A DNA stretch of 17,475 nucleotides, filler included, from Candidatus Zapsychrus exili (GTDB lineage: Bacteria; Omnitrophota; Gorgyraeia; Zapsychrales; Zapsychraceae): assembly GCA_030765585.1 (NCBI GenBank). It is 2 parts of 2 records of this genome, joined end to end, with 100 filler letters (N's around TTAATTAATTAA, not from the genome) between each part and the next. Parts side by side here need not be neighbours in the genome. Positions count along the whole stretch, not along the records: positions 12,593 to 17,475 come from JAVCCJ010000012.1; 1 more part is not named here. The stretch is one strand, 5' to 3'. The notes under the pieces are model-generated. The model was not told the DNA's origin and made no database searches. It worked only from the letters and a program-made list of their open reading frames with translations. Positions within the stretch are counted from its first letter, which is position 1. The number at the start of each line of letters is the position of its first letter. This document shows, piece after piece, positions 1 to 17,475 of the stretch. A program made the translations under genes and the position numbers.

Positions 1-59
1 AAAAGAATTTTCTTCTTTAACTCTGGTATCTTAAAACTATTAACAAATGATGACAGCAT
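1..59 (-). CDS. secY: Preprotein translocase SecY, 5' end only (runs off the window)
   Basis: ATG at 59-57 reads MLSSFVNSFKIPELKKKIL, matching the typical SecY N-terminus (F-KIPEL-KKI); directly downstream of rplO as in the spc operon. Confidence 0.9.
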   Translation of the reverse strand, partial: MLSSFVNSFKIPELKKKIL

Positions 60-71
60 ATAATTAAAATC

Positions 72-578: not shown

Positions 579-599
579 GCTTTAAAACCTTTACTTTTA

Positions 600-1403: not shown

Positions 1404-1408
1404 AATCC

Positions 1409-1774
1409 TTAAAACTCTAAACCCCCTTTTCGAGCTCCATCAGCAAATGCCTTAACTCTTCCGTGAAAAAGGTATCCTCCTCTATCAAAACAAACTTTTT
1501 TGATTCCTTTTTCTTGAGCTTCTTTAGCAAAAACTTCTCCAAAAGCTTCTGCAGCACTAACATTGCCACCACTTTTAACAGAGCTACATCTCTTATCTAA
1601 AGTAGACATTCCTAATAAAGTTTTTCCACAACTATCGTCTACTATTTGAGCTTGTAAATTTTTCAAGCTTCTATGAATACACAATCTTAATCTATCAGGA
1701 GTACCTGATACTGTTTTTCTTATTCTTCTATGACGAAGTATTCGTTTGAATTCTTTTTTATCTATCTTTTTCAT
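1409..1774 (-). CDS. rplR: 50S ribosomal protein L18
   Basis: [44 protein letters not shown]. Confidence 0.98.
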
Positions 1775-1782
1775 AATAAAAC

Positions 1783-2322
1783 CTATTTTGTAACTGACTT
1801 TCCTTGTTTTCTTCTTACAATCTCGCCCACGTATCTAATTCCTTTTCCCTTGTAAGGTTCAACTGGCTTTAAAGCTCTTATTTTTGCTGCCGTTTGACCA
1901 ACAGAGACATTGTTTGTACCTTCTATAGAAATAGATGTCTGAGTAGGAACTGTAATTGTTACATCCTCTGGAGACTCAAACTCTACAGGATGGCTAAAAC
2001 CTAAATTAAATGTTATTTTGTTTCCTTGTAATTGTGCGCGAAAACCAATTCCTTGTATTTCTAAATCTTTCTTATGTCCCTTTGTTATACCAATTACCAT
2101 ATTATTCAATCTAGCCCTTATGGTACCGTGATTAGAACGATTTTGTTTTGCGTTAGAAGTGCGAGTTATGACTAACTCCTCTCCCTTATGCTCTACATTT
2201 ATACCATTTGGTATATTTATGTCTAGTTTGCCTTTTGGTCCTTCTAAGCAAACATTTCCGCCATTAATATTTACCTTAACTTCTTTTGGTACACTAACTG
2301 GAACTTTTCCTATTCTTGACAT
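1783..2322 (-). CDS. rplF: 50S ribosomal protein L6
   Basis: MSRIGKVPV, LGFSHPV, EPYKGKGIRY. Confidence 0.98.
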   Translation of the reverse strand: MSRIGKVPVSVPKEVKVNINGGNVCLEGPKGKLDINIPNGINVEHKGEELVITRTSNAKQNRSNHGTIRARLNNMVIGITKGHKKDLEIQGIGFRAQLQGNKITFNLGFSHPVEFESPEDVTITVPTQTSISIEGTNNVSVGQTAAKIRALKPVEPYKGKGIRYVGEIVRRKQGKSVTK

Positions 2323-2335
2323 ATTCTTTTATACC

Positions 2336-2728
2336 TTACCAAATATAACACAATACTTCTCCACCAACTTTTGCCTTACGAGCTTCTTTATCCGTAATAA
2401 CACCCTTAGAGGTTGAAAGTACTGCTGTTCCCATACCGTTTAAGACCCTAGGAATATTATCCCTTTGAGCGTAAACTCTTAAACCCGGTTTAGAGACTCT
2501 TTTAATACCAATAATAGCCTTCTTTTCGCCATATTTTAAATAAATTTTATAGCTTCCTTGAACACTATCTTTCATTAGACGAAAATCTTCAACATATCCC
2601 TCTGACTTAAAGATTTCCAATGTCTTACCTATCAGCTTAGAAGCTGGAACATCTACTGTTTCTTTTTTAGCTTGTTGACCATTTCGTATTATCGTCAAAA
2701 AATTACTAATTGGATCGTTCAATGACAT
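2336..2728 (-). CDS. rpsH: 30S ribosomal protein S8
   Basis: DPISNFLTIIRNG, RVSKPGLRVY, STSKGVITDKEARKAKVGGEVLCYIW. Confidence 0.98.
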   Translation of the reverse strand: MSLNDPISNFLTIIRNGQQAKKETVDVPASKLIGKTLEIFKSEGYVEDFRLMKDSVQGSYKIYLKYGEKKAIIGIKRVSKPGLRVYAQRDNIPRVLNGMGTAVLSTSKGVITDKEARKAKVGGEVLCYIW

Positions 2729-2768
2729 TTCTTATTCCTTTATTTTCTTTTATAAAATAGAGAACTAC

Positions 2769-2954
2769 TTACCAACTTGCTTTCTTAACACCCGGGATTT
2801 CTCCCTTCCAAGCTAATTCTCTAAAACAAATTCTACAAACACCGAATCTTCGCAAAAATGCTTTTGGTCGCCCACACAATTGACAACGATTATATTGTCT
2901 TGTTGAGAATTTTGGTTTTCGTGCTGCTTTATTTACTAATGCTTTTTTTGCCAT
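2769..2954 (-). CDS. rpsZ: 30S ribosomal protein S14, short zinc-binding type Z
   Basis: 61 aa, RCQLCGRP...CRICFRELA...IPGVKKASW with both CxxC pairs. Confidence 0.97.
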
Positions 2955-2961
2955 AATATTT

Positions 2962-3507
2962 TTATTTCTTACTAAAAGGCATTCCTAATAGAGTTAACAA
3001 CTCAAATACCTTTTCTTTTTCGCCATTTTTGAAAACTAATGTTATATCCATACCTTGTGTATACGCCATTCGTCCAGTATCAATTTCTGGAAAAATTGCT
3101 TGATCTGAAAGACCAAGAGTATAGTTGCCTTGCTTATCAAAGCCATTACGTGAAACACCATTAAAATCTCTAATCCTAGGAAGAGCTACATTAACCATTC
3201 TATCTAAAAATTCATACATTTTTGTTTTACGCAAAGTTACTTTACATCCAACTGTCATTCCTTCACGTAATTTAAAATTTGAGATAGATTTCTTTGCTTT
3301 TGTTACAATTGGCTTTTGACCTGTAATCGTTGTCATTATATCAACAGCATGATCCATCATCTTAGCATCACTAATCGCTCCACCAACTCCCATATTAACA
3401 ACTATTTAATCTAGCCTAGGCAAAGCTAAAGAGTTTTTTATATTAAACTTCTCTTTTAAGGCCGGTATACATTCTTGGTTATATTTATCTTGTAAACGAG
3501 AACTCAC
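2962..3507 (-). CDS. rplE: 50S ribosomal protein L5 (in-frame TAA at codon 34, probably a base-call error)
   Basis: GTG at 3507-3505 reads [41 protein letters not shown], in frame with the 2962..3393 ORF ([28 protein letters not shown]). Confidence 0.93.
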
Positions 3508-3509
3508 CT

Positions 3510-3821
3510 TTAAACCACCTCTCCACTTTTTTTGCTAATTCTTACTTTCGAACCATCTTTTAAAATTGAAACACCAAAACGAGTTGGCTTATTTGTCTTT
3601 TTATCTAAAAGCATAATATTTGAAATGTGTATAGACGTTTCTATTTCAATAAAACCACCTTGTTGATCTTGCTGAGTTTTTCTCTTTGCCTTCTTTACCA
3701 TATTAATGTTTTCAACTATAACACGATCACTCTTAGGAAAAACTCTTAAAATTTTACCTATCTTCCCTTTGTCTTTCCCAGCAATTACAACTACTTGATC
3801 ATTTTTTTTAATACTTAACAT
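3510..3821 (-). CDS. rplX: 50S ribosomal protein L24
   Basis: IKKNDQVVVIAGKDKGKIGK KOW motif, IHISNI. Confidence 0.98.
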   Translation of the reverse strand: MLSIKKNDQVVVIAGKDKGKIGKILRVFPKSDRVIVENINMVKKAKRKTQQDQQGGFIEIETSIHISNIMLLDKKTNKPTRFGVSILKDGSKVRISKKSGEVV

Positions 3822-4190
3822 TTAAACTACCTCAGGTGCTAAAGAAATTATTTTCATATAATCCATACCTCTTAGCTCTCTTGCAACAGGACCAAAAACA
3901 CGTGTTCCTCTTGGGTTGCCTGCATCATCTACAATTACAACCGCATTGCTATCAAAACGAACGTATGTTCCATCAGAGCGTCGGATAGGAAATTTTGTTC
4001 TTACAACAATAGCTTTTGCCATTGTTCCTTTTTTAACTGCCGCTTCTGGAGCAGATTCTTTAATATTTACCTTAATAGTATCTCCAATTTTAGCAAACCG
4101 CCTGCCTTTTACATTAAGCGCACTTATCATAGAAGCCTTACGAGCTCCGGAATTATCAGCTACATTTAATAATGTTTTCATATATATCAT
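3822..4190 (-). CDS. rplN: 50S ribosomal protein L14
   Basis: VADNSGAR, GTRVFGPVARELR, KIISLAPEVV. Confidence 0.98.
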   Translation of the reverse strand: MIYMKTLLNVADNSGARKASMISALNVKGRRFAKIGDTIKVNIKESAPEAAVKKGTMAKAIVVRTKFPIRRSDGTYVRFDSNAVVIVDDAGNPRGTRVFGPVARELRGMDYMKIISLAPEVV

Positions 4191-4199
4191 AAAGACCTC

Positions 4200-4472
4200 T
4201 TATTCTTCTAATTTCTTTACTATACTAGCAATTACCCAGCGTTTATCTTTTGAAATTGGGCGAGTCTCTTGAATCTTAACAATATCCCCTGCTTTAGATT
4301 CATTTTTCTCGTCATGCGCTTTATATTTAGAAGCAGTTCTTACAACTTTTGTATATTTAGAATGTTTTGTAGACCACTTAACCTGAACAGTGCGAGTCTT
4401 GTTCATCTTGTCACTTACAACAGTGCCTTGAAGAACTTTTCTTCTATTTAGTCTCTTTGTCACTTCTGGCAT
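4200..4472 (-). CDS. rpsQ: 30S ribosomal protein S17
   Basis: GTVVSDKMNKT, KYKAHDEKN, ETRPISKDKRW. Confidence 0.97.
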   Translation of the reverse strand: MPEVTKRLNRRKVLQGTVVSDKMNKTRTVQVKWSTKHSKYTKVVRTASKYKAHDEKNESKAGDIVKIQETRPISKDKRWVIASIVKKLEE

Positions 4473-4662
4473 CTTCTATTTCTCTTTCTCTTAATATTGT
4501 CAAAATACGAGCAATATCTTTTTTTAACATTTTAAAACGTGCTGGTTTTTCAACAGCGCCCATTTTGCGTTGATAACTAAGATCAAAAAGCTCTTTTTTA
4601 AATGTTTTCTCTTTTTGTATCAACTCTTCTTTTGTTAATTCTTTTAAATCTTTTATTTTCAT
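4444..4662 (-). CDS. rpmC: 50S ribosomal protein L29
   Basis: MKIKDLKELTKEEL...KKDIARILTILRERE; between rplP and rpsQ. Confidence 0.96.
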   Translation of the reverse strand: MKIKDLKELTKEELIQKEKTFKKELFDLSYQRKMGAVEKPARFKMLKKDIARILTILREREIEDARSDKETK

Positions 4663-4668
4663 AGCAAA

Positions 4669-5085
4669 TTAATGTCCAGCTCTTGTAACAAATTTTGTTT
4701 TTAATGGTAGTTTAAATGAAACTAATCTAAAAATTATCTTTGCAAAATCTTCAGGAACGCCACTTATCTCAAATAAGACTCTACCTCTTTTAACTACGGC
4801 TACCCAATGATCAAGATCACCTTTTCCTTTACCCATACGAGTTTCAGCAGGCTTTTTAGAAACAGGTTTACTAGGAAATATATTTATCCAAAGGGTGCCT
4901 GCCCCTTTTAGCTTTCTAGCTACAACAACACGACAAGCCTCTATATGATTAGAACGAATCATTCCATTTTCTATAGCCTTAAGTCCGTATTCCCCAAAAG
5001 TTATTTTACTTCCTGTTGTTGCAATTCCTCTATTTTTTCTTTTTTGGGACTTACGATATTTAACTTTTCTTGGCAATAAAACCAT
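4669..5085 (-). CDS. rplP: 50S ribosomal protein L16
   Basis: LLPRKVKYRK, KKPAETRMGKGKG, KLPLKTKFV. Confidence 0.98.
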   Translation of the reverse strand: MVLLPRKVKYRKSQKRKNRGIATTGSKITFGEYGLKAIENGMIRSNHIEACRVVVARKLKGAGTLWINIFPSKPVSKKPAETRMGKGKGDLDHWVAVVKRGRVLFEISGVPEDFAKIIFRLVSFKLPLKTKFVTRAGH

Positions 5086-5089
5086 CTAT

Positions 5090-5767
5090 TTAGCTCTCCT
5101 GTTTATTTTCAGCAACACTTGTGTTCTGTCTCTTTATTTGTTTTATAACATCACCTTTATAAACCCAAACCTTAACGCCAAGTATTCCATAAGTAGTCAA
5201 AGCTTCAGCAAAACCATAATCGATTTTTGATCTAAACGTTTGTAAAGGCAACTTTCCTTCTTTATAACTTTCTTGACGCGCCATTTCAACTCCATTAAGA
5301 CGTCCAGCGCATCTAATTTTAATACCCTTTGCACCTGATGTCATAGCGTTATCGATAGCTCTTTTCATTGCGCGACGAAATGCGATTCTTTTTTCAAGTT
5401 GAAAAGCAACATTTTGTGCAATTAGTTGAGCTTCAATAGAAGGATTCTTAATTTCTCTTGGATCAATAGTAATTTCTTTTGAAGTTATCTTTGCCAACTC
5501 TTCCTTTAATCTATCAATATCAGCACCGCGACGACCAATAATAACACCTGGTCTTGCAGTATGAATGATAACTTTTACCTTATCAGCCAATCTTTCAATA
5601 ACAACCTTAGCTACCGCAGCTTGCACAAATCTCTTTTTGATAAACTTTCTAATCTTTTGATCTTCGATAACGTTCTTTGCAAATTCATGTTTATCGGCAT
5701 ACCAACGACTTCTCCAGTCTTCGATGTATCCAATTCTTAAAACAATAGGACTTACTTTTTGACCCAC
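5090..5767 (-). CDS. rpsC: 30S ribosomal protein S3
   Basis: MGQKVSP, TARPGVIIGRRG, GRLNGVEMAR, TTYGILGVKVWVYKG; GTG start. Confidence 0.98.
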   Translation of the reverse strand: MGQKVSPIVLRIGYIEDWRSRWYADKHEFAKNVIEDQKIRKFIKKRFVQAAVAKVVIERLADKVKVIIHTARPGVIIGRRGADIDRLKEELAKITSKEITIDPREIKNPSIEAQLIAQNVAFQLEKRIAFRRAMKRAIDNAMTSGAKGIKIRCAGRLNGVEMARQESYKEGKLPLQTFRSKIDYGFAEALTTYGILGVKVWVYKGDVIKQIKRQNTSVAENKQES

Positions 5768-5779
5768 TTTGACTCCCCT

Positions 5780-6115
5780 TTATTTTGCTATCAAATCTAA
5801 TTCTATTGTTAAATGTGATGTTTTCTTTATTATCTTTGTTGCGCGACCAAATGCAGCCGCTCTGAATCTTCTCCATGAAGGGCCTTGGTCAGCAGTTATC
5901 TTAGAAATAAAAAGCTGTTCTTCTGATAAACCTTTTTGCTTAGCATTACTTGCAGCCGAATTAAGCACTTTAGAAATCATTTTTGTTGATCCCTTGTTTG
6001 CCTGCATCAATATAGCTAATGCTGTTGGCACATCACGACCTCTAATAAGATCAATCACTTGTCTAAGTTTAATAGGTGAAACTCTAACATATCTTGCTTT
6101 TGCTATTGATATCAT
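5780..6115 (-). CDS. rplV: 50S ribosomal protein L22
   Basis: AKARYVRVSPIKLRQVIDLIRG, SAASNA, GRATKIIKKTSHLTIEL. Confidence 0.98.
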   Translation of the reverse strand: MISIAKARYVRVSPIKLRQVIDLIRGRDVPTALAILMQANKGSTKMISKVLNSAASNAKQKGLSEEQLFISKITADQGPSWRRFRAAAFGRATKIIKKTSHLTIELDLIAK

Positions 6116-6120
6116 AATAA

Positions 6121-6408
6121 TTATGTCTTTTGAGCTGCTTTCTTAGCTTTGACTCCGCCATGTTTTCTAAAAATTCTTGAATTTGCGAAGACTCCTAGTT
6201 TATATCCAACCATATTCTCTGTTATAAAGACAGGAACATGTTTCTTTCCATCATGGACTGCGATTGTATAGCCTACAAAGTCTGGAATAATTGTTGATCT
6301 TCTAGACCAAGTTTTTATTGGCAACTTTGATCCAGATTCCACCACTCTGTTGAATTTCTTCATTAATGTATCTTCTATATAAGGACCTTTTTTAATAGAA
6401 CGTGGCAT
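6121..6408 (-). CDS. rpsS: 30S ribosomal protein S19
   Basis: [35 protein letters not shown]. Confidence 0.98.
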
Positions 6409-7247
6409 TACTTAGCACCTCTTCTTCTTACAATATATTGATTTGAATATTTTTTACGTTTTCTCGTTTTAAAACCTTTTGTTGGCTTACCCCAAGGTGT
6501 TACGGGATGAGGGTTTCCTTGTGGAGCTTTTCCTTCACCACCACCATGAGGGTGATCGACAGGATTCATTACAACACCTCTTACCTGTCCTCTTTTACCT
6601 AACCAGCGCATACGACCTGCTTTTCCTATAGAACGACTTTCATGTTCAACATTACCTATTTGTCCAATAGTTGCACGACAATTAATATGAATTTTTCTTA
6701 CTTCTGATGAAGGCATTCTTATAAAAGCAAATTCGCCTTCCTTTGCCATAAGTTGTGCTGATGTTCCTGCTGAACGAGCTATTTGTCCACCTTTTCCAGC
6801 TTTTAATTCTATGTTATGAACACCTGTTCCAAGAGGAACTTTACTTAAAGGCATACAATTGCCTGCTTTAAATTCAATAACTGAGTCATAAGTACTTGAT
6901 ACCTTATCTCCTACTTTTAATTCTAAAGGAGCAAGAATATAAGATTTTGCTTCATCTTCATACTGAATTAAAGCAATTCGACAAGTTCTGTTGGGATCAT
7001 ATTCTATAGCAAGCACTATAGCTTCTTGATCAATACGATCACGTTTAAAATCTACTAACCTATACATACGCTTATGTCCACCACCGCGATATCTTGCAGT
7101 AATTCTTCCGTAAGAATTTCTTCCACCCTTTTTCTTCAAAGGCTTAAGAAGCGATTTTTCTGGCTTAGACTTTGTTATTTCTGCAAAATCAGAAATTGCT
7201 GTATGCCTTAAACTAGGTGTCGTTGGTTTAAATCTTTTAATTCCCAC
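6408..7247 (-). CDS. rplB: 50S ribosomal protein L2
   Basis: [41 protein letters not shown] start. Confidence 0.99.
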
Positions 7248-7250
7248 TTT

Positions 7251-7529
7251 TTAAGTTACCTCTATCTTTTGACCTTCTTCAAGCGTTACAAATGCTTTTT
7301 TCCAATCAGGTGTTTTTCCTTGTTGCTGACGAACTCTTTTTTTCTTACCAGGCATAATTGTTACATTGACTGCAGCTACTTTTACCTTATATATTTCTTC
7401 GACAGCTTTCTTTATTTCAATTTTATTAGCACTCTTAGCTACTTCAAAAAGGTACTTTCTATCAATTTCTAGAGAAGCTCCTTTTTCTGTTCGTATTAAA
7501 TTTTTAATAATATCGTAAGATGTAATCAT
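7251..7529 (-). CDS. rplW: 50S ribosomal protein L23
   Basis: TEKG, ANKIEIKKAVE, WKKAFVTL. Confidence 0.97.
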   Translation of the reverse strand: MITSYDIIKNLIRTEKGASLEIDRKYLFEVAKSANKIEIKKAVEEIYKVKVAAVNVTIMPGKKKRVRQQQGKTPDWKKAFVTLEEGQKIEVT

Positions 7530-8149
7530 TTCTTTATTCTATCCAATAAACTGTTAAATGCTGTCTTAGATAACAATAGCTTTTTATTTTTTAAAATATC
7601 ATAAGCATTAACATCACAAGCTCTCATTAAATTAAACCCGCGAATGTTACGTGATGCTTTCATAATGCTTAAATCGCTACCGTCTAGCACAGCTAGGGTT
7701 TTACATTTTATATCTAGTTTTTCTAAAACTTTACTAAATTCTTTAGTTTTATTAAAAGCTTCTTTTAAATCAACAATACAAAGCAAATCTTTATCAATAA
7801 CTTTTGCACACAAGCTTTCTCTTAAAGCTGCCTTTTTTATCTTCTTAGGTAATGGATAATCGAAATCGCGAGGATGTGGTCCAAATACAACCCCACCACC
7901 TGCCCAAAGAGGATTACGACTAGAACCAACTCTGGCTCGTCCAGTACCTTTTTGACGATGTGGCTTTCTTCCGCCTCCAGATACACAAGATCTTCCTTTA
8001 GTAGATGCTGTTCCTTGACGCAAAGAAGCTTGATACATAACTACTGCTTGATGAATAACGTCTGCATTCACTTTGCCATTAAAAATATCATCTGGAAGAT
8101 CGATACTTTCTTTTTCTTTACCATTTTTATCTAAAACTGGAAATTTCAC
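7526..8149 (-). CDS. rplD: 50S ribosomal protein L4
   Basis: RQGTASTKGR, RQKGTGRARVGS, GGGVVFGPHPRD; GTG start. Confidence 0.98.
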   Translation of the reverse strand: MKFPVLDKNGKEKESIDLPDDIFNGKVNADVIHQAVVMYQASLRQGTASTKGRSCVSGGGRKPHRQKGTGRARVGSSRNPLWAGGGVVFGPHPRDFDYPLPKKIKKAALRESLCAKVIDKDLLCIVDLKEAFNKTKEFSKVLEKLDIKCKTLAVLDGSDLSIMKASRNIRGFNLMRACDVNAYDILKNKKLLLSKTAFNSLLDRIKK

Positions 8150-8183
8150 TTAACTTTTTCCTTTATTATTTTTAAAGAAGATA

Positions 8184-8888
8184 TTATTTCTTCTTGGCCT
8201 TTGCCTTACTTTGCTTCATAGGATTAATCTTATGTTTGATAACAGCTTTCTTCTCTTCAAGCGACCTATATGCCTTCTTAAAAGAACGATTTACAGAAAC
8301 AACTGCATTGTGATGTCCTGGAATAGCGCCTTTAACTAATATAATATTATTATCGGCATCAACCTCCATAACTCGCAATCCCTGAGTAGTAATTCTTTTT
8401 GCACCCATTTGACCTGGCATATTTGTACCCTTAAGTGTTCTTGAAGGATCAGCACTAGCACCAATGGAACCAACTCTTCTATGATGCATTGAACCATGTC
8501 CTCCTGGTCCACCAGACCAATGCCAACGTTTCATACCGCCTTGAAAACCTTTACCAATCGATGTTCCTGTAAAATCAACAAAGTCTCCTGGCTTAAAAAA
8601 ATCTGCCTTGATTTCTTGGCCAACTTGATAATCTTTGTTATCAGTTGAAGAAAATTCTCTTACAACTTTAGTAGGCGTTACAGAAATTTTCTTAAAGAAT
8701 CCTAATTCAGGCTTAGTTAGTCTTGATTCTTTAACAGCTCCAAAACCTAACTTAATCTTCATCGGTTCTTCTTTTAATTCCAAGACAGTACATGGCCCAA
8801 CTTCAACAACCGTTACGGGAACAACATTTCCTTCTGGGTCGAAAATCTGAGTCATACCTAATTTTTTTCCAATCAGACCTCTTAACAT
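8184..8888 (-). CDS. rplC: 50S ribosomal protein L3
   Basis: GKKLGMTQIF, GTSIGKGFQG, HRRVGSIG, MPGQMG, VKGAIPG. Confidence 0.98.
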   Translation of the reverse strand: MLRGLIGKKLGMTQIFDPEGNVVPVTVVEVGPCTVLELKEEPMKIKLGFGAVKESRLTKPELGFFKKISVTPTKVVREFSSTDNKDYQVGQEIKADFFKPGDFVDFTGTSIGKGFQGGMKRWHWSGGPGGHGSMHHRRVGSIGASADPSRTLKGTNMPGQMGAKRITTQGLRVMEVDADNNIILVKGAIPGHHNAVVSVNRSFKKAYRSLEEKKAVIKHKINPMKQSKAKAKKK

Positions 8889-8901
8889 TTCACTTACTTT
8901 C

Positions 8902-9204
8902 TTATTGTTTGATTTCTACGTCAACACCAGCAGGAAGATTTAACTTTCTTAATGCTTCAATCGTCTTTGCTGTCGGCTCAAGTAAATCAACTAACCTTTT
9001 ATGTGTTGCTAGACTAAATTGCTCTCTAGACTTTTTATCTATAACTGGAGACCTAAGAACCGTATAAAGTTCTTTTTTAGTAGGTAACGGTACGGGACCT
9101 GAAACTTTAGCTCCGGTACGAATTGCTGTATCTACTATCTCTTTTGTAGATTGGTCAATGAGCCTGTGATCAAACGCTTTTAATTTTATTCTTATTTTTT
9201 GCAT
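8902..9204 (-). CDS. rpsJ: 30S ribosomal protein S10
   Basis: [35 protein letters not shown]. Confidence 0.99.
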
Positions 9205-9218
9205 ATTTTACCTTTTAG

Positions 9219-10412
9219 TTATTCTATAACCTCATGAATAACGCCAGCTCCAACAGTACGTCCACCTTCACGAATAGCGAAGCGTAGCTCTTTTTCCATA
9301 GCAACAGGTTGAATAAGTTCAACTTCCATTTCAACGTTATCACCTGGCATACACATCTCTACACCCTCTGGAAGAAGTGCTGTTCCGGTAACATCTGTTG
9401 TTCTGAAATAAAACTGTGGTCTATATCCTTTAAAGAAAGGAGTATGTCTTCCGCCTTCTTCTTTAGTTAGAATATATGCTTTAGCTTTAAATTTAGTATG
9501 TGCAGCAATTGTTCCAGGAGCAGCTAAAACTTGTCCTCTTTCAATTGCTTCTTTATCAATACCTCTTAAAAGAAGACCGACATTATCTCCTGCTTGTCCT
9601 TCTTCCATTTCTTTTCTAAACATTTCAACACCTGTTACAACCGTCTTTTTAGCTTCTTTTGTCATACCGACGATTTCAGCATTATCTCCAACATGAATCT
9701 TTCCTCTTTCGATTCTACCTGTTGCAACAGTTCCGCGACCAGAAATAGAGAAAACATCTTCTATCGCCATTGAGAATGGTTTATCTAGTTCACGAGGTGG
9801 TTCAGGAATAAAAGAATCAACGGCTTCCATCAGCTTATCAATTGATTCTGTTTTTGTTGGATCATCCATATTATTTAAGGCTTCTAAAGCACTTCCTTGA
9901 ATTATAGGAGTATTGTCTCCGTCATAATTATATTTAGTAAGAAGTTCTCTTAATTCCATTTCAACTAGTTCAAGAAGTTCTTTGTCTTCTACTTGATCAC
10001 ATTTATTCATGTAAACAACGATAGAAGGAACGTTTACCTGACGTGCTAAAAGGATATGCTCTTTTGTTTGAGGCATAGCTCCATCAGCAGCTGATACAAC
10101 TAGAATAGCTCCATCCATTTGAGCAGCACCAGTAATCATATTTTTAATATAATCAGCGTGACCTGGACAATCAATATGAGCATAATGACGACTCTCTGTT
10201 TCATACTCAAGATGAGCGATATTGATTGTAACTCCTCTTTCTTTTTCTTCAGGAGCGTTATCAATAGAATCATACGAACGCTCTTGAGCGAACCCTTTTT
10301 TTGCTTGATAAAGAGTGATCGCAGCTGAGAGAGTTGTTTTACCATGATCAACGTGACCAATGGTTCCGATGTTCATGTGCGGTTTATTTCTTACGAATTT
10401 TTCCTTAGCCAT
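9219..10412 (-). CDS. tuf: Elongation factor Tu
   Basis: [55 protein letters not shown] upstream. Confidence 0.99.
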
Positions 10413-10450
10413 AAATGCCTCCTTTTTAAATAAAAAGAATTTCTTATTTC

Positions 10451-12492
10451 TTATTTCTTATTTGTAAGTTCCTTTGCTCCCATAATCTTCTCGGAAACAT
10501 ATTTAGGAACTTCTGCATAATATGATGGTTCCATTGAAAAAGATGCTCTACCTTGCGTTAAAGAACGCAAAGCATTAACATAATTAAACATCTCAGCTAA
10601 AGGAACATCACAACGTGCTGTTTTTAAATTTCCCCTACTACCATTCCAACTATTTGAGCTCTTCTTTGATTCAGATCCCCTAAAACTGTGCTCATAAAAT
10701 CTTCAGGAGAAGTTACTTCTATGTCCATAACAGGCTCAAGCAAAACAGATTTTCCTTTTCTCAATCCTTCTTTAAGCGCCATCTTAGCCGCTAATTGAAA
10801 TGCCAACTCGCTTGAATCTACTTCATGATATGAACCATCAACTAATGTTACAGTAAAATCAACAACAGGATAAGCAGCTAGTATACCATTATTTGCACCA
10901 TCCATGATACCCTTTTGAACGCACTTTATAAATTCACGAGGTATTGATCCACCCTTAATTCTATCAATAAATGTAACGCCTTTTCCTTTTTCTTCAGCTG
11001 GCTCTATATCAATAATGACGTGGCCATATTGACCCTTACCACCAGTTTGTGAAATGTACTTCCCTGATATACCTTTAACTTTTTCTGTAATAGTTTCCTT
11101 ATAAGCAACCTCTGGACGACCAACTGTAGTCTCTAAATTAAATTCTCTCTTCATACGATCAATAATAATCTCTAAATGAAGCTCTCCCATTCCAGATATA
11201 ATAGTCTGAGCTGTTTCATGATCATACATAACTTGCAAGGAAGGATCCTCATCTAAAAATTTTCTTAAAGTCAAACCTAACTTATCTTGATCAGCTTTTG
11301 TCTTAGGCTCTATAGACATAGAAACTACTGGCTCTGGTATCTTCATGTTTTCTAAAACAATTTTATTGTCAATATTACATATAGTGTTTCCAGATTTTGA
11401 TTCTTTTAATCCAACCAATGCAACAATTTCTCCAGCTGATGCTTTCTCAGCAATTTCTTGTTTATTAGAATGCATAACAACTATCTTCGCGATTCGTTCT
11501 TTTGCTTTTTCAGATGAATTATATACCTGTGTTCCCGATGTAATAGTTCCAGAATATATTCTTGTGTAGAATAATTTTCCAACATAAGGGTCAGTTGCTA
11601 CTTTAAATATTAATGCGCTTAGAGGAACATCTGGTTTTGGCTCCCAAGCTAAACTTTCTTTCGTTTTTGGATCTTCACCTTTAACCTGAGGAACTTCCAA
11701 AGGAGATGGAAGATAATCGCATATAGCATCTAGTACAAGTTGAACTCCTCTATTCCTTAAAGCTGTTCCTGTTAAAACTGGTAAAAATGCATTTTTAAGT
11801 ACGCTTCTTCTTATAGCTGCTTTAAGCTCGTCTTTTGTAATTTCTTGCTCTTCTAAAAATTTCTCCATTATACTATCGTCTGCATCAGCTAGCTTCTCTA
11901 TAAGTGTATGTTTGCATTCTTCTAATTTTTCTTTTAAATGTTCTGGTACTTCGCTTCTTTCTAAATCCATTCCTTCAGCATCTTTATATGTAATATATTC
12001 CTCGTTAACAACATCTACAATACCTTCACATTGATCTTCTGCCATATTTGGAAAATTAATTACCGCTGCATTAGCACCTAATCTATCATGTATTTCTCCT
12101 AAAACTCTTTCGTAACTTGCACCCAATCTATCAATTTTATTAATAAAACAAATACGAGGAACATTATATCTATCAGCTTGACGCCAAACAGTTTCAGTTT
12201 GAGATTGAACACCACTTGTTGCACACAATATAACTACAGCGCCATCAAGAACCTTAAGCGATCTTTCTACTTCAACTGTAAAATCAACGTGTCCTGGAGT
12301 ATCAATTATATTTATCTTCTTTTTTTGCCAGTAACATGTTGTATTAGCAGATGTAATTGTAATGCCTCTTTCCTGCTCTTGAGCCATCCAATCCATAGTT
12401 GCATTACCTTCATCAACTGTGCCCATTTTATGTATAACGCCTGTGTAAAACAAAATACGTTCTGTTGTAGTTGTTTTACCAGCATCAATATG
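10451..12492 (-). CDS. fusA: Elongation factor G, 5' truncated by the gap, with a 1-bp frameshift near 10641
   Basis: Frame is open to the gap ([18 protein letters not shown]), then [25 protein letters not shown]; after ...RRAQIVGM the EF-G C-terminus [38 protein letters not shown]...KK* continues in another frame to a stop at 10453-10451. Confidence 0.96.
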
Positions 12493-12592
12493 NNNNNNNN
12501 NNNNNNNNNNNNNNNNNNNNNNNNNNNNNNNNNNNNTTAATTAATTAANNNNNNNNNNNNNNNNNNNNNNNNNNNNNNNNNNNNNNNNNNNN
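12493..12592. other. Artificial assembly spacer (44 N + TTAATTAATTAA + 44 N)
   Basis: Exactly 100 bp and symmetric; central 12-mer at 12537-12548 places stop codons in all six frames. Confidence 0.97.
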
Positions 12593-12747
12593 AGGTTGGA
12601 TTTTATAACTCTAGTTATGATTTTAATGGACTTCAAATTGGGATTATAAATGAAGCTGATTGGTTAAACGGAGTGCAAATAGGTCTTATTAATGTTCACA
12701 AGAACGGCGAAAGAGACTTTTTTCCTATAGTTAATTTTTCATTTTAA
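12593..12747 (+). CDS. 3' end of a GxQIGxxN repeat protein (LA_2272-like surface repeat family), truncated by the gap
   Basis: Manual translation from 12595: VGFYNSSYDFNGLQIGIINEADWLNGVQIGLINVHKNGERDFFPIVNFSF*; repeated NG[LV]QIG[IL]IN and terminal FPIVNFSF; family assignment from recall. Confidence 0.75.
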
Positions 12748-12792
12748 TTTAAATGTATTATAGGTTTTTGTTGTCAGAGAGGATTATATTTT

Positions 12793-12999
12793 ATGGTTAA
12801 AAGGATAGAGGTTAATATTGTTGCAGGTAGAATTCTAGAATTATTGGAACACAACAAGGGACTTTTTGCGAAACAAATGGTATCTGAAGTTTTAAAAGAG
12901 CCAGAAGACTTGGTTTTAAAAGGAATAGAGTGTCTTGTAAAGAACGATTTAGTTGAAATTCAAAGAGAAGAAAATATATTGATAGAAAAAAATAATTAA
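12793..12999 (+). CDS. Small winged helix-turn-helix-like protein (DUF2582-like)
   Basis: 68 aa; AG-x-I-x-x-L-L start and L-x-x-GI-x-x-L-x-K-x-D-x-V pattern resembles DUF2582 by eye; RBS AGAGGA upstream. Confidence 0.55.
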   Translation: MVKRIEVNIVAGRILELLEHNKGLFAKQMVSEVLKEPEDLVLKGIECLVKNDLVEIQREENILIEKNN

Positions 13000-13089
13000 G
13001 TACAGGTGATTTTTTACAAAATTGCAGCTATCTTTTAATTTTAATAGGATTTTACTTTCTTTAGCTTATTTCTAGGTTTAATTCGTATC

Positions 13090-13117
13090 TTGAAATATAT
13101 CGAATTCTTGATAGAAT
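13090..13117 (+). promoter_or_regulatory. Candidate sigma70 promoter upstream of the cassette-like array
   Basis: TTGAAA (13090-13095), 16-nt spacer, TAGAAT (13112-13117) with extended -10 TG at 13109-13110. Confidence 0.45.
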
Positions 13118-13220
13118 ATTATCTTATTTAACGGAGATTGATACGTCTAAGTGGTTGCAACAAAGGTATAGAAAGTTTGCGTAAAAATGGAAGTGGAGTC
13201 TTTAAGTAGGGGGAGAATAA

Positions 13221-14294
13221 GTGGTTTCAGTGTGTGAGAATAAAAAGGGGAGATTTCTGCCTAAATCATTTGATGTTGCCCATAGGTTGTGTTTTGTGAT
13301 TCATGATGTTATGTGTCAAATAATCACGTCAGGAGAAGAGGGCAATTTCTTTACTACAACTATTGAGTTAAAAAATAAGAATGAACGAGAAGCGTTAAAT
13401 AATATAGATGATTTCTTTGCGTTGTTGGAAAGTGAGGAACGTTTTGAGGACAGGGCCGAGATTCTGAGAACGGTCGTTTTGCCTGCAGTCTTATCTGACA
13501 TGATGCATTGTATTTTTGAATCTTTAGAAAGCTCCCGAAAGGCTAAATTGGGTGTTTCCTACATGCTTATACGGAAACCATTACAGGAGAGTTTGTATTT
13601 ACTAGAGTCAGTTGTGCTGGATGAGTCGGATTTTGCAAAAAAATTAGTCGAAGACCCTTTAAAACTTCGTCCAAGCAATGCGGGTGGTGTTGAAGACCAT
13701 GGGCGACGAATTAAAAAGGTCCTAGAGATTATTAGTGAAACTCCTCGCCTTGATGCTGATTATATTGCACAGCTTAGATATGACAAAAAGAAGGAAGACA
13801 GTTTTGATGGAGCATGTAATCACGCAATGCATTTGTTTACGCAACATGAAGCTATTCGAACTGAAAACTTAAATATCAACTTTATCTTTTCTGGTTGGGA
13901 AGAAAAGATAACCCAATGGTCATATTTTTATAGTCGGTTACCATATTTGCTCTTTTATACCCATAAAATGGTCGAACATATCGTAGAAAGGATAGTTCCT
14001 ACGTCACAAGAATATCTTGATGATATTCAAAGAAGATTATCTGCGCTAATTATTTTATGGTGGGAAGGCATTGATGAGCAGTACACCTGTGATCAGCTAA
14101 TGATTTTTGTGAAAGAAACAGAATCTTGGCTAAAGAAACATTGCAAATCTGCTGGGCACAGAATCCCCAATAATAAAGATTTATGGAGAATGTCAAAAAC
14201 AGGTGCTTTTCCGAAAGAAAACATATTTTCAGTTAAGGCGCGTGCTCTAAAGTATGAAGCTCGTGCTGCTATAAACAAAATATATGCAAACTAA
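13221..14294 (+). CDS. Hypothetical 357-aa protein, possibly a divergent HEPN/DUF5677-like fold (cassette 1)
   Basis: GTG start after RBS GGGGAG; motifs LIRKPLQE and ACNHAMH parallel the R-x3-E and distal H pattern of DUF5677-like proteins; TAA stop lies in repeat 1. Confidence 0.7.
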   Translation: MVSVCENKKGRFLPKSFDVAHRLCFVIHDVMCQIITSGEEGNFFTTTIELKNKNEREALNNIDDFFALLESEERFEDRAEILRTVVLPAVLSDMMHCIFESLESSRKAKLGVSYMLIRKPLQESLYLLESVVLDESDFAKKLVEDPLKLRPSNAGGVEDHGRRIKKVLEIISETPRLDADYIAQLRYDKKKEDSFDGACNHAMHLFTQHEAIRTENLNINFIFSGWEEKITQWSYFYSRLPYLLFYTHKMVEHIVERIVPTSQEYLDDIQRRLSALIILWWEGIDEQYTCDQLMIFVKETESWLKKHCKSAGHRIPNNKDLWRMSKTGAFPKENIFSVKARALKYEARAAINKIYAN

Positions 14295-14312
14295 ACGTTA
14301 ATTATGGTAAGT
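14289..14312 (+). repeat. Inter-gene direct repeat 1 (dif/Xer-like site)
   Basis: AACTAA-ACGTTAA-TTATGGTAAGT. Confidence 0.85.
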
Positions 14313-14326
14313 AGGAGATAATAAAT

Positions 14327-14629
14327 ATGCAAGCAAATGAAAGATCGCTAGAGATATTAAACTTATTTGGTAAATATATTCAAGATGGAGATGAGTCTAC
14401 TGTTAAAGGCATTTCGGAAAAAGAACTAGAGATTACTTTGATACAATGTCTTCAAGATAAAGAATCTTCTCAATACGAAGCTATGGAAAGATGGTTGGAT
14501 AAGTTAACAAATAATAAGAAAGAGAACCAAAGAAAAAATGAAAAAGTAGAAGAAAGAATTTGGAATTTAATTTTCTTAATCGTAGGAGTTTTGATTACTT
14601 ACATCAGTACTTCGTTAATAGTAAAATAA
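14327..14629 (+). CDS. Hypothetical 100-aa protein with a C-terminal transmembrane helix (cassette 2)
   Basis: RBS AGGAG at 14313-14317; C-terminal IWNLIFLIVGVLITYISTSLIV hydrophobic stretch. Confidence 0.75.
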   Translation: MQANERSLEILNLFGKYIQDGDESTVKGISEKELEITLIQCLQDKESSQYEAMERWLDKLTNNKKENQRKNEKVEERIWNLIFLIVGVLITYISTSLIVK

Positions 14630-14714
14630 ATAAGCTAATAAGAAAATTGAAGGATGGCAGCAAAAGACATTTGGCGATCGATTTCTTATTATGGCTCCAA
14701 GAGAAAACAAAAAA

Positions 14715-14738
14715 AATTAATCGTTAATTATGATAAGT
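14715..14738 (+). repeat. Inter-gene direct repeat 2 (dif/Xer-like site)
   Basis: AATTAA-TCGTTAA-TTATGATAAGT, identical to repeat 3 over 24 bp. Confidence 0.9.
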
Positions 14739-14765
14739 CAGAATAAATTTTAAGAAGGTCTTTCA

Positions 14766-15551
14766 ATGAATACAGATCAATCATATTTACAAAGATATAA
14801 AAAATTTTTACGAGAATATGCGAGCAGACACTACTATTTAATTATTAACAGAAGAATAAAGGGTGAAAGATTATTAGGACAACGTAGCATTAATTTGCTT
14901 CTGCATATTCTTCAAAGATCACGTTATTTGTCCGAATCGCTCGCAATGTGTTTTAATCATAAACATCAATCGGTCGCATATTTGGCCGTTAGAGCGCACT
15001 TTGAAGTAACAGGCATGCTGGTATATTTTTATAATAAAATAAAAAGATTTTATGAAAAAGACATTACATATGAAGAAATGGATGTAGTTCTTCGTCGTTT
15101 AACATTAGGGGGCAGAGCTTCGGCGCAAAAACTTTTACCAAGTTTTTCTAAGGCTATTAGTGTTATGGATTTCATTGATGAAGCAGATCGATTATTTAAT
15201 TCTATGGCCAAAGAAAAGAAAGATATTTATCGTGATCGTTATGATTATTTGTCTGAATTTTGCCATCCCAATAATTTTGGTTTAACTCTTGGGTGTAATA
15301 TTGTCGGATGGAATGGACGTACTTTTGCAAAAACTCAAGTTCTTGAGAAAAGAGATAAAAAAGAGCTTATTCGTGATTTTAATATTAGTTCAATTCTTTT
15401 TTTCTCGATATATGATAAATGTTTTGAGATTATAAAAGAAAGAGAATCAAAAGATATGCCATTATTATTTAAAAGTTTCACTGCTTTTAATTGGGCTCTT
15501 ATAAAATTTAAGCTGGGAGCAAAAGATAAAGCATTTGAACGCGCTAATTAA
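14766..15551 (+). CDS. DUF5677-like / HEPN-like hypothetical protein (cassette 3)
   Basis: 261 aa; AYLAVRAHFE and YDYLSEFCHPN match the R-x3-E ... Y-x2-LS-x3-HP pattern recalled for this family; TAA stop lies in repeat 3. Confidence 0.7.
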   Translation: MNTDQSYLQRYKKFLREYASRHYYLIINRRIKGERLLGQRSINLLLHILQRSRYLSESLAMCFNHKHQSVAYLAVRAHFEVTGMLVYFYNKIKRFYEKDITYEEMDVVLRRLTLGGRASAQKLLPSFSKAISVMDFIDEADRLFNSMAKEKKDIYRDRYDYLSEFCHPNNFGLTLGCNIVGWNGRTFAKTQVLEKRDKKELIRDFNISSILFFSIYDKCFEIIKERESKDMPLLFKSFTAFNWALIKFKLGAKDKAFERAN

Positions 15552-15569
15552 TCGTTAATTATGATAAGT
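15546..15569 (+). repeat. Inter-gene direct repeat 3 (dif/Xer-like site)
   Basis: AATTAA-TCGTTAA-TTATGATAAGT; 15543-15573 matches 17316-17346 at 30 of 31 positions. Confidence 0.9.
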
Positions 15570-15591
15570 AGAAAAATGATGCGAGGAATAT

Positions 15592-16197
15592 ATGAAAAAA
15601 AATGAAACTGTCGTTCGTGGAGCGCCAAAGCTTGTTGGCAGAAATCTTTCGCCCGAAGAAAGAGAGGCACGAGCTGCAAAAGAAAGAGCCGAGACCGCTG
15701 AAACAGGGCTCCTTTTCAATTTGAAACGTTTTGCTGTGTGTTTAAGTCAAGGAAACACGACGATGTATTTTGACAAGATTACAACAGCTACAATTTCTGA
15801 GCTAGTAAGGTTTAAAAAGGTAATTAGACAATATAAAAAGGATCTAGCTAAAGTTACTTTTTCAAATTCCCGACTTACAATATACGATATTCTAAAAGCG
15901 GCGATAAATCATGAGCTATTAAGACGAAAATCAATACTTTTTAAAATTTACTCTTTGCTGTTACCGCTTCGGAAAGTAATAGCTTGGCAAGTTGGTCATA
16001 GAAAAAGTCATTATTATAAAGAATTTGGCATAATATTTGTTTATAAGTATACTCATAATTTCTTTTATGCTCCAATAAGCAAACACGTTAAAGCTTTATG
16101 GCGATTTTGGCTGTTACATTGGAAATGGCTCTTACAATCTTCCGGTGGTATAGGTCTTGGTTATCTGTTATTAAAATTATATCGTTATTTAAATTAA
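15592..16197 (+). CDS. Hypothetical basic 201-aa protein with Trp-rich hydrophobic C-terminus (cassette 4)
   Basis: RBS GAGGA upstream; C-terminal LWRFWLLHWKWLLQSSGGIGLGYLLLKLY; TAA stop lies in repeat 4. Confidence 0.65.
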   Translation: MKKNETVVRGAPKLVGRNLSPEEREARAAKERAETAETGLLFNLKRFAVCLSQGNTTMYFDKITTATISELVRFKKVIRQYKKDLAKVTFSNSRLTIYDILKAAINHELLRRKSILFKIYSLLLPLRKVIAWQVGHRKSHYYKEFGIIFVYKYTHNFFYAPISKHVKALWRFWLLHWKWLLQSSGGIGLGYLLLKLYRYLN

Positions 16198-16215
16198 ACA
16201 TTAATTATAATAAGG
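16192..16215 (+). repeat. Inter-gene direct repeat 4 (most divergent copy)
   Basis: AATTAA-ACATTAA-TTATAATAAGG; three differences from repeat 5, same position relative to stop and next start. Confidence 0.75.
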
Positions 16216-16229
16216 AAGAAAGGAAGAGA

Positions 16230-16703
16230 ATGATAAAGAAATTATTAAACCCAATTATAGTATCATGGATTGCTATTTGTATATCTGTTTTTAGTGTTTG
16301 GTTCTCAATACGTAATGCAAACACTAATCGTATAATGCATCTCAATAATATCCGAGGGGAAATAGTGACTCAATTAACTATTGTAGGTTTAGAATTACTA
16401 TCTAATATTAAATCTCTATTAAAATATAGCAACCCAGATTTAGATACTATCGAAATCCTTAAAGAATTAGCTGAAGATATAGTAAAAATACGAAATAATT
16501 TCAAGCTGGAGGCATTTGGCTCTCCGTCTTTAAAAGTTATTGATAAGTACGCCAAAGATCTTTCAGCAATAAAAATAGATTGGGATGATTCTATACATAT
16601 TTTTGAAAAACTTACACAGGCTGTAAACGCAAAAGATATGGAAAGCGTAAAACAATGCACTAAAGGTCTACACGAAAGATTCCACGGCACAAAAACACCA
16701 TGA
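16230..16703 (+). CDS. Hypothetical 157-aa protein with an N-terminal transmembrane helix (cassette 5, gene 1)
   Basis: Start reassigned from 16098 to the in-frame ATG at 16230 (RBS-like AAGGAAG, removes a 100-bp overlap); IIVSWIAICISVFSVWFSI is hydrophobic. Confidence 0.7.
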   Translation: MIKKLLNPIIVSWIAICISVFSVWFSIRNANTNRIMHLNNIRGEIVTQLTIVGLELLSNIKSLLKYSNPDLDTIEILKELAEDIVKIRNNFKLEAFGSPSLKVIDKYAKDLSAIKIDWDDSIHIFEKLTQAVNAKDMESVKQCTKGLHERFHGTKTP

Positions 16704-17305
16704 AAGAAATCAAACTTCCAGCTAGATACATAATTCGAGCTTCTTTGCCTATTCATTTTGACAACAAAGAATCTGAACAAGTAGGAAACATAAAAGCTGC
16801 CCATATTAGCACATTCAAAGTTAACAAAGAAGAATATGACATTGTTCAGAAGAATGGGGCACAAGTTATATCCAGCACTATTTATATTGAATCCCTGATC
16901 GAGGATATTTTGTCAATTTACTTATTTGAAGATAAAAAAGAGAATAATAGCAAGAGGTCTTTTTTTGATAATGAAATATTAAAATCTGACAACTTATCAT
17001 TCTCTGCCAAAAAAGAATTATTACAAAAACTTTTAAATAGCCTTGTTTTTTTAAAAGGCAAAGAAAAAGATCTTTTACAAAAGAATTTTAAAAATATTTT
17101 AAATATACGCAATGCTTTTGCACATGGAAAACTTGTAGACGATACGAACAAAGATTGGCAAATTCAATATTATTCAGGAAGCAAAAAAAACATCTCCTTA
17201 GACGACATATACTGGCAAGAACTAGAAGATTGTTTTAACCAAACCGACACATTGCTTAAAGACATAAAAGATAAACTAGTCAAAAAGTTTACACCCTCAA
17301 GTTAG
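16700..17305 (+). CDS. HEPN-domain protein, putative RNase (cassette 5, gene 2)
   Basis: IRNAFAHG has the HEPN Rx4H motif, with upstream IESLIEDIL and LSFSAK typical of MtlR-like HEPN folds; ATGA overlap with the previous gene. Confidence 0.75.
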   Translation: MKEIKLPARYIIRASLPIHFDNKESEQVGNIKAAHISTFKVNKEEYDIVQKNGAQVISSTIYIESLIEDILSIYLFEDKKENNSKRSFFDNEILKSDNLSFSAKKELLQKLLNSLVFLKGKEKDLLQKNFKNILNIRNAFAHGKLVDDTNKDWQIQYYSGSKKNISLDDIYWQELEDCFNQTDTLLKDIKDKLVKKFTPSS

Positions 17306-17318
17306 CATAAGATGAGCT

Positions 17319-17342
17319 AATTAAACGTTAATTATGATAAGT
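17319..17342 (+). repeat. Inter-gene direct repeat 5 (dif/Xer-like site)
   Basis: AATTAA-ACGTTAA-TTATGATAAGT. Confidence 0.9.
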
Positions 17343-17343
17343 A

Positions 17344-17383
17344 GAACTAACTATTGATAAAATATGTTATCAATAGTTTGTTC
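17344..17383. repeat. 40-bp near-perfect palindrome between repeat 5 and the patatin gene
   Basis: GAACTAACTATTGATAA-AATATG-TTATCAATAGTTTGTTC: 17-bp arms with one mismatch, inner 12 bp perfect, 6-bp centre. Confidence 0.85.
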
Positions 17384-17409: not shown

Positions 17410-17475
17410 ATGAGTAGAAAATTTAAAATATTATCAATCGATGGTGGTGGAATTAGAGGCTTGATTCCTGCAATG
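17410..17475 (+). CDS. Patatin-like phospholipase, 5' end only (cassette 6)
   Basis: Manual translation MSRKFKILSIDGGGIRGLIPAM contains the patatin glycine-rich LSIDGGGIRG motif; not in the ORF track. Confidence 0.88.
   Translation, partial: MSRKFKILSIDGGGIRGLIPAM

Follow-up and report, generated by a model that had tools for sequence, protein, structure and literature searches.

Probable One-Armed Sites for a Mobile Xer-Like Recombinase Clade as Candidate Joints of Integron-Like Cassettes in Candidatus Zapsychrus exili

Introduction

Five short repeats stand between successive genes in a 17,475-nucleotide stretch of DNA (hereafter the window) from Candidatus Zapsychrus exili (Omnitrophota; GCA_030765585.1, genome G000 below), and the question that they raise is which recombinase, if any, acts on them. 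A first-pass annotation had read the repeats as a Xer-family target with an XerD-like right arm, a degenerate left arm and an atypical 7-bp spacer. Here we propose that they are probably one-armed sites that serve one clade of a mobile Xer-like recombinase family, each made up of a 6-bp core beginning with C and followed by an 11-bp arm, and that they would join integron-like cassettes. Sequence comparison showed the anatomy of the sites, the match of the arm to the symmetric site of that clade, the position of the sites at gene junctions beside family genes, and their fixed polarity.

Results

Five Co-oriented Repeats

The window consists of contig C128 (positions 1-12492, a ribosomal-protein operon) and contig C129 (from 12593) of an assembly of 2.04 Mb in 129 contigs that is 96% complete. 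A 20-base repeat consensus had five exact matches in this genome, all within the window and all co-oriented, which bears out the five copies first annotated. The repeats scored 33-44 bits on their own profile, and three shuffles of the genome gave no match above 20 bits. The sites, a remnant of a sixth, and the neighboring symmetric site are as follows (ORF, open reading frame; CBASS, cyclic-oligonucleotide-based anti-phage signaling system):

14292..14312, + strand: site 1; TAA at 14292-14294 is the ORF1 stop, 6-bp core at 14296-14301, 11-bp arm at 14302-14312
14718..14738, + strand: site 2; core at 14722-14727, arm at 14728-14738, 98 bp past the ORF2 stop
15549..15569, + strand: site 3; TAA is the ORF3 stop, core at 15553-15558, arm at 15559-15569
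16195..16215, + strand: site 4; TAA is the ORF4 stop, core at 16199-16204 (one change), arm at 16205-16215 (two changes)
17322..17342, + strand: site 5; core at 17326-17331, arm at 17332-17342; closes the array, 7 bp ahead of the symmetric site
13203..13209, + strand: remnant of a sixth site preceding ORF1; end of an arm and purine-rich leader, where the array is cut
17350..17377, no strand: perfect symmetric 11-6-11 site whose arms are of a different type within the recombinase family; the CBASS-recombinase module starts here on its left

The arm of site 1 matches that of site 3 at 10/11 positions, and site 4 is the most decayed copy. Ahead of ORF1, the identity of the window to a duplicated chromosomal segment (contig C35) ends at 13204. 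In sites 1, 3 and 4 the left part is coding sequence of the upstream gene ending in its TAA stop, in agreement with the earlier description. A stop codon followed directly by the motif (up to three mismatches) was found for 4 of 1,645 G000 ORFs, three of these four lying in the window array.

A Mobile Recombinase Family With Symmetric Sites

Contig end overlaps lead from C129 to C120 and from there to C35 (carrying HicB and HicA) or C36. C120 encodes, on its minus strand, a 319-aa tyrosine recombinase from a large, unnamed and mobile Xer-like family, in which the catalytic residues R164, K190, H267, R270, H293 and Y302 were invariant across 50 aligned members. The family comprised 4,791 proteins at E<=1e-60 among 8,000 scored candidates, is carried on at least 133 plasmids and was present in 17/168 genomes of the order. 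Ten perfect or near-perfect 11-6-11 palindromes were found in 14 plasmid loci of the family, mostly just upstream of the gene, and in all loci examined the centre was 6 bp in 31/32 palindromes on family contigs and never 7 bp.

The arm type of these symmetric sites tracks the recombinase clade in the protein tree. When arms were compared with a quick tree (36 rows, 13 of them in the matching clade, SH-aLRT 95), the gene-proximal arm matched the array arm at 10-11 of 11 positions in 7/13 matching-clade rows versus 1/23 other rows; for the row G646a, an exact arm 61 bp upstream served as the gene-proximal arm. The host itself carries a symmetric site of the array's arm type (G000:C35:831-864), identical at 14/14 positions (arm plus flank) with sites 3 and 5. 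The symmetric site at 17350-17377 is 28/28 identical to the one upstream of a family recombinase on a Nitrosomonas plasmid, and the assembly branches one base to its left. C120 forms a two-in, two-out node whose branch points coincide with the outer edges of two symmetric sites, this one and the one upstream of its recombinase, which differ in arm type, so family sites do bound moving modules.

Several further arrangements of the family were observed. The module on C120:1-5340, found in two contexts, encodes a CBASS phospholipase, cyclase, E2/E1 and JAB proteins followed by the recombinase; its E2/E1 (Cap2) gene is split into two in-frame ORFs (2023-3039 and 3040-3798). A plasmid-like element (G000:C94:1-9204, with RepA, relaxase, Fic and an AbiEii pair) connects to the symmetric site that the array also adjoins, and has a decayed one-armed site at the same distance from it. 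In G013, two divergent family recombinases of different clades flank a symmetric site (L074:17147-17174) that is a hybrid of the two arm types, which suggests cross-clade recombination. In G012, a family-type palindrome, a palindrome with IntA-like arms and a 6-bp centre, and a one-armed site occur within 200 bp of each other (L028:10585-10800), inside a defence island with a retron-type reverse transcriptase and Gabija. Pieces of a Tn3-type transposase adjoin the family in G012, and a tblastn search of G000 for a Tn3 transposase found none. IntA was rejected as a family member; it is only 24% identical to the C120 protein and has a site with a 7-bp centre.

One-Armed Sites in Related Genomes

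Searching with the arm alone recovered six exact one-armed copies, all intergenic, in 96 kb of matching-clade loci. Across 31 kb of mixed loci the same search found a single exact copy, which is the site that a recombinase gene carries upstream of itself; the other loci, 363 kb in total, held no copy, and a reversed-arm control also gave none. The arm occurs 16 times in G000 (8 times inside ORFs) and its reversed control 4 times, with about 0.2-0.4 copies expected by chance per 96 kb. Exact arm copies, near matches and pattern or profile finds together made up 17 junction sites in seven genomes and eight loci: five in G000, four in G012, three in G640, two in G649, and one each in G643, G013 and G646. 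This set leaves out an intergenic one-mismatch match on G012 contig C21 (3838), likely due to chance, the reverse reading of the third G640 site, a recombinase-proximal site in G646, and copies away from a family gene (G000 C54 and C19; G699).

All 17 junction sites point toward the 3' end of the family gene, and in G640 a one-armed site was present at each of three successive gene junctions. A profile built from the five window sites had seven matches (one chance-like) in 243 kb of recombinase contigs, compared with 0-3 in 30 shuffles. Cargo next to one-armed sites included Abi_alpha, PifA, Gabija, TIR, AbiTii, SIR2-like and CBASS genes. Genome G699 has a one-armed and a symmetric site as a pair, at the spacing seen for site 5.

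The exact site was absent from viral contigs, and in GTDB it was found in six stretches, three of which represent two loci with the G012 site positions and three of which are single matches in ordinary contexts of unrelated phyla. Metagenomes yielded 22 stretches, four identical to C129 and 18 lacking an array. A class-wide pattern search hit 38/401 genomes, and the 30 loci inspected looked chance-like; a loose pattern applied to five genomes gave no excess over its control, and scans of viral sequences for the recombinase or symmetric sites gave at most two weak loci.

Single one-armed copies were also seen near the ends of other G000 islands, on C54 (minus strand, ~11458) and C19 (minus strand, ~19836). 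The C54 copy has the same core as the C35 symmetric site; the C19 copy has a tRNA-like gene next to it and precedes an AbiTii-like gene. A cassette row of G012 includes an odd tRNA-like gene (L027:5563-5658), for which ARAGORN gave an undetermined anticodon.

A 6-bp Core Rather Than a 7-bp Spacer

The 17 junction sites also served to set the register. C occupies the sixth position before the arm in 17/17 sites, the seventh base varies (10 A, 4 T, 3 C), and so does the left flank. The C was likewise present in the seven sites of G640, G643, G649 and G646 that passed the arm-only test. A TAA lies 7 bp from the arm in nine of the 17 sites and 6 bp in two, and is absent in six. Because the C is invariant and the seventh base is not, the core is 6 bp, and the 7-bp gap is a local feature. 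The TAA-to-arm distance of 7 is indeed present in all five window sites, and the three spacer variants first noted do occur among them, but the 7-bp parse built on them did not hold, also in view of the symmetric sites; with a 6-bp core, four of the five window sites share one core sequence, and the variants, once proposed to limit recombination partners, reduce to the one change in site 4. The earlier view is supported in so far as the site is of the tyrosine-recombinase type, strong in one arm and degenerate on the left, but its atypical geometry is not. A conserved inner hairpin of the G000 and G012 sites was dropped from consideration, as it is absent in other genomes.

A 7-bp centre does have precedents in VGJ attP (29 bp) and CTX attP2 (5-7 bp) (PMC4246890, PMC5357621), in IntA attA (PMC4928290) and in sfx (PMC11852207).

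Genes and Cassettes of the Array

Six ORFs are co-oriented with the repeats, which split the array into units of 426, 831, 646 and 1127 bp. The window therefore shows the integron feature of co-oriented gene cassettes in a row, separated by recombination-type sites. The genes are:

13221..14294, + strand: ORF1, 357 aa; no Pfam, NCBIfam or PADLOC family
14327..14629, + strand: ORF2, 100 aa, hydrophobic C-terminus; 426-bp cassette between sites 1 and 2
14766..15551, + strand: ORF3, 261 aa, no family; 831-bp cassette
15592..16197, + strand: ORF4, 201 aa, no family; 646-bp cassette
16230..16703, + strand: ORF5, 157 aa, hydrophobic N-terminus; leads the two-gene 1127-bp cassette
16700..17305, + strand: ORF6, 201 aa; weak HEPN-type matches, below cut-off
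17410..17475, + strand: start of the CBASS phospholipase gene; the operon and the family recombinase continue on C120

None of the six window ORFs had a family match above cut-off. ORF1 had 323 homologues, many of them proteobacterial, and is full length against them; ORF3 exceeds most of its homologues by about 10 residues, extending into the site.

On the far side of the array, window 12593-13204 together with the end of G000 contig C58 is a 96%-identical, partly deleted second copy of G000:C35:21891-22509. The duplicated segment ends in the 5' stub of a gene resembling an ORF on C99, which we take to be an ilvD-like gene, and it is inverted and about 22 kb from the other side of the island if C120 joins C35. 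In the other half of the window, the ribosomal-protein operon and an EF-G gene on C128 need not adjoin the repeat array; the contigs are separated by an N linker (12493-12592) with a 12-base palindromic insert. Ribosomal protein S5 (window 600-1403, minus strand) has a long N-terminal extension of about 120 aa with acidic repeats.

Signs of Movement

At ~98% identity, contigs from two marine sequencing runs of separate studies (X3 and X4) track ORF1 into and across site 1 and part from the window sequence after 14315. Two and three differences, respectively, must fall beyond 14260, and these would fit a core and arm that came from another cassette. Two further runs, X1 and X2, may include the source population.

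Discussion

Proposed Mechanism

In the mechanism that we propose, one recombinase monomer would bind the arm by sequence and recruit a second onto the variable left side. Rci offers a comparison, since in its sfx sites the core and the right arm are conserved but the left arm varies, and the second monomer is proposed to be loaded non-specifically (PMC11852207). The first strand exchange would take place where the core begins on its left, at the invariant C, which would provide the needed base-pairing. Given that the rest of the core differs between sites, the junction would probably be resolved by replication, as for CTX and VGJ at dif, which need homology only beside the first cleavage (PMC4246890, PMC5357621). 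A cassette would consist of core, arm, leader, one or more genes and left flank; it would insert ahead of an existing core, and the row would grow away from the recombinase gene. The TAA stops at -6 or -7 may mimic the inner end of the missing arm, because all symmetric arms end in TAA. The recombinase on C120 is of a different clade, so the row is probably either an orphan or dependent on cross-reaction. The linkage of each arm to the gene that follows it cannot arise from a crossover at the left of the core, the same gap as in integron cassette formation, and two-sided use of the arm would close it.

Alternative Explanations

The repeats could be binding sites without crossover, regulatory or accessory elements that are bound by the element's recombinase or another regulator ahead of cargo genes that are shuffled by other means. 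Every site directly precedes a gene start, and a ribosome-binding site often follows the arm immediately. A fixed distance before a symmetric site is shared by site 5 and the copies in G699 and on C94, much like the accessory sites of TnpI irs, and resolvases are known to regulate promoters in res sites (PMC7157771). A lone binding site, however, gives no reason for the invariant C at -6. No sigma-70 promoter match using the site's -10-like hexamer was found, and in X3 and X4 the neighbor changes right at site 1. We consider this explanation unlikely.

Recognition by the host XerC and XerD, as at pdif or IMEX (integrative mobile elements exploiting Xer) sites, would be one form of the Xer-family target suggested by the first-pass annotation; XerD would bind the arm and XerC would be loaded on the degenerate left arm. 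One-armed Xer sites do exist, TLC attP with its degenerate arm being an example (PMC4246890, PMC5357621). The host has both proteins, XerC on C72 and XerD on C83, above the NCBIfam cut-offs, which the C120 recombinase does not exceed. A loose dif pattern matched 94/101 genomes of the order, and among the matches listed there was one highly conserved dif, with a left arm that we take to be of a Bacillus-like type. The host dif was located at G000:C80:24595-24622 (minus strand), without mismatch to the order-wide arms. A second dif-like site near a contig end (G000:C62:8580-8607, two arm mismatches) is a possible trace of a dif-integrated element.

Against the host XerD arm, the array arm matched at 9/11 positions in four sites and 7/11 in site 4, and it is one base off the XerD arm of several relatives. 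On the XerD profile it scored 11.1, below the 15-18 of true dif arms and above the 8.8 that marks the 99.99th background percentile. The left part matched the XerC arm at only 2-6/11 positions and scored -7.9 to -25.5, within the background range in both the 6- and 7-bp registers. The comparison with host dif therefore came out two ways, the dissimilar XerC side counting against a Xer target and the similar XerD side in its favor. In two other genomes a family recombinase and palindrome lie within about 1 kb of the chromosomal dif (L072:16075-18065 in G074 and L219:4058-5830 in G679).

Other observations speak against host XerC/XerD. The array is not at dif, which lies on C80, unlinked by end overlaps to the contig chain of the array. 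Nearly all members of the order have dif and Xer, but outside G699 the sites turned up solely next to the mobile family. In the symmetric version both arms are equal, and its place is upstream of genes of the clade. Alternating C/D-D/C orientation was not found, all five sites being direct, unlike the inversely oriented C/D sites that Blackwell and Hall in 2017 reportedly described as bounding pdif modules. Judged from its sequence, the array site is not a C/D site: its left part lacks a XerC signal, and its arm equals the symmetric-site arm of a mobile clade. XerD alone may nevertheless bind the arm. Host XerC and XerD as the acting enzymes are accordingly not supported, and we regard them as quite improbable.

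In a reversed reading, the arm would be a left arm, displaced by two bases, and the crossover would fall in the six purine-rich bases that follow it. The arm is nearly self-complementary, and on a profile made from the remaining arm types, without the matching ones, the shifted reading obtains the better score. The cut ahead of ORF1 falls within one base of the crossover so predicted, and X3 and X4 diverge inside these six bases. The two bases required before the arm nevertheless vary among genomes where the C at -6 does not, and the clade's symmetric sites hold the arm as their right arm, which leaves this reading with very little probability.

That the sites are shrunken attC or attI sites, and the array the relic of an IntI integron, can practically be dismissed: the genes are compact and co-oriented with stop codons overlapping the site, part of the core resembles what we take to be the integron core consensus, and several ORF1 homologues end in Ala-Asn-x, an ending often found in genes running into attC, but IntI exceeded the TIGR02249 cut-off in 0/4 genomes (G000, G012, G013, G699; C120 reached 64 bits versus 265), the inner inverted repeat of only 3-7 bp with coding sequence up to the TAA leaves no space in which the hairpin of an attC site could form, judged without a run of an attC model, the core resemblance is lost in G640, G643, G646 and G649, and an Rfam search of the sites gave no family.

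Weighing the One-Armed Reading

Our preferred reading, one-armed sites of a single recombinase clade, has observations to contend with beyond the XerD-profile and shifted-arm scores above, both of which also weigh against it. Six of the 13 matching-clade rows carry other arms or none. The G000 assembly holds no matching-clade gene, C120 being only 36-40% identical to the clade. G699 has a one-armed site and no family gene at E<=1e-55, and the one-armed site on G012 C80 adjoins a recombinase outside the matching clade. In the copies on G000 C54 and C19 and in G699 the first core base is T instead of C. Because the genomes are related, the counts are not independent. As DNA, the window cassettes were found in none of the 167 other genomes of the order, apart from the site-5 pair in G699, and runs X1-X4, which provided low-depth contigs only, held no reads or contigs that skip a cassette.

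Comparison With Known Systems

Some of the integron features compared here are taken from PMC4542609. The array resembles integrons in its compact, co-oriented cassettes of one or two genes beside a tyrosine recombinase gene, its stops overlapping the site and its defence cargo, and it may be orphaned in the manner of CALIN rows (clusters of attC sites lacking an integrase). It differs in having neither IntI nor an attC hairpin, and in sites of about 17 bp that are double-stranded in type. Its genes also converge on the 3' end of the recombinase gene, whose own symmetric site is on the far side.

The R64 shufflon (Rci/sfx) likewise combines a single tyrosine recombinase with sites of conserved core and right arm and variable left arm; its sfx sites, however, are 12-7-12 and drive inversions, and their asymmetry is reported to block deletion between direct sites (PMC11852207). 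In the one-armed sites the core is 6 bp, all 17 are direct with whole genes between them, and they occur alongside symmetric sites that have the same arm. The 11-6-11 pdif sites of Acinetobacter bound exchangeable modules, as family sites do around CBASS and HicAB, but they have XerC and XerD arms, depend on host Xer and alternate in orientation, whereas the array has one arm type, a dedicated recombinase family and direct sites (PMC9455709, PMC12907356). The attP sites of IMEX (CTX, VGJ, TLC) share degenerate arms, odd centres and core homology at one end; they use host XerCD at dif, unlike the array, which is off dif and has no XerC arm (PMC4246890, PMC5357621).

A symmetric site directly upstream of a single recombinase gene is also known from TnpI/irs (Tn4430, Tn5401), TnpS/T (PMC7157771) and IntA/attA of Rhizobium etli (PMC4928290). 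Such arrangements often lie beside toxin-antitoxin genes, and in the parts of these accounts consulted no one-armed cassette rows are described (PMC7157771, PMC4928290). The rulAB integron-like elements and mcr-10 xerC were rejected as different systems. A literature search that did not extend to subscription papers and supplements found no description of this system, nor do the available parts of two recombinase classifications contain one. The system would be integron-like in its working, yet IntI and attC are lacking; its sites are of shufflon type, but direct and with a 6-bp core, and it is neither pdif nor IMEX.

Implications

A more far-reaching idea, which we put forward tentatively and consider rather doubtful, is that the system represents an integron that arose independently a second time. 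A single Xer-like recombinase, its symmetric home site and one-armed sites of 17 bp would then serve to capture, stack and exchange defence genes, and the recombinase may even make cassettes, through TAA mimics and an arm read from either side. Integrons are the textbook case of cassette capture, and the first formation of cassettes is still an open question. If true, a parallel system of small recombinase and 17-bp one-armed sites would show that cassette stacking evolved more than once, and cassette formation would become testable with short double-stranded substrates. The family occurs on plasmids of culturable Proteobacteria, and its clade-specific 28-bp sites could give orthogonal recombinase tools. 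The arms may also serve as markers for new anti-phage genes, for which the six window ORFs would be candidates.

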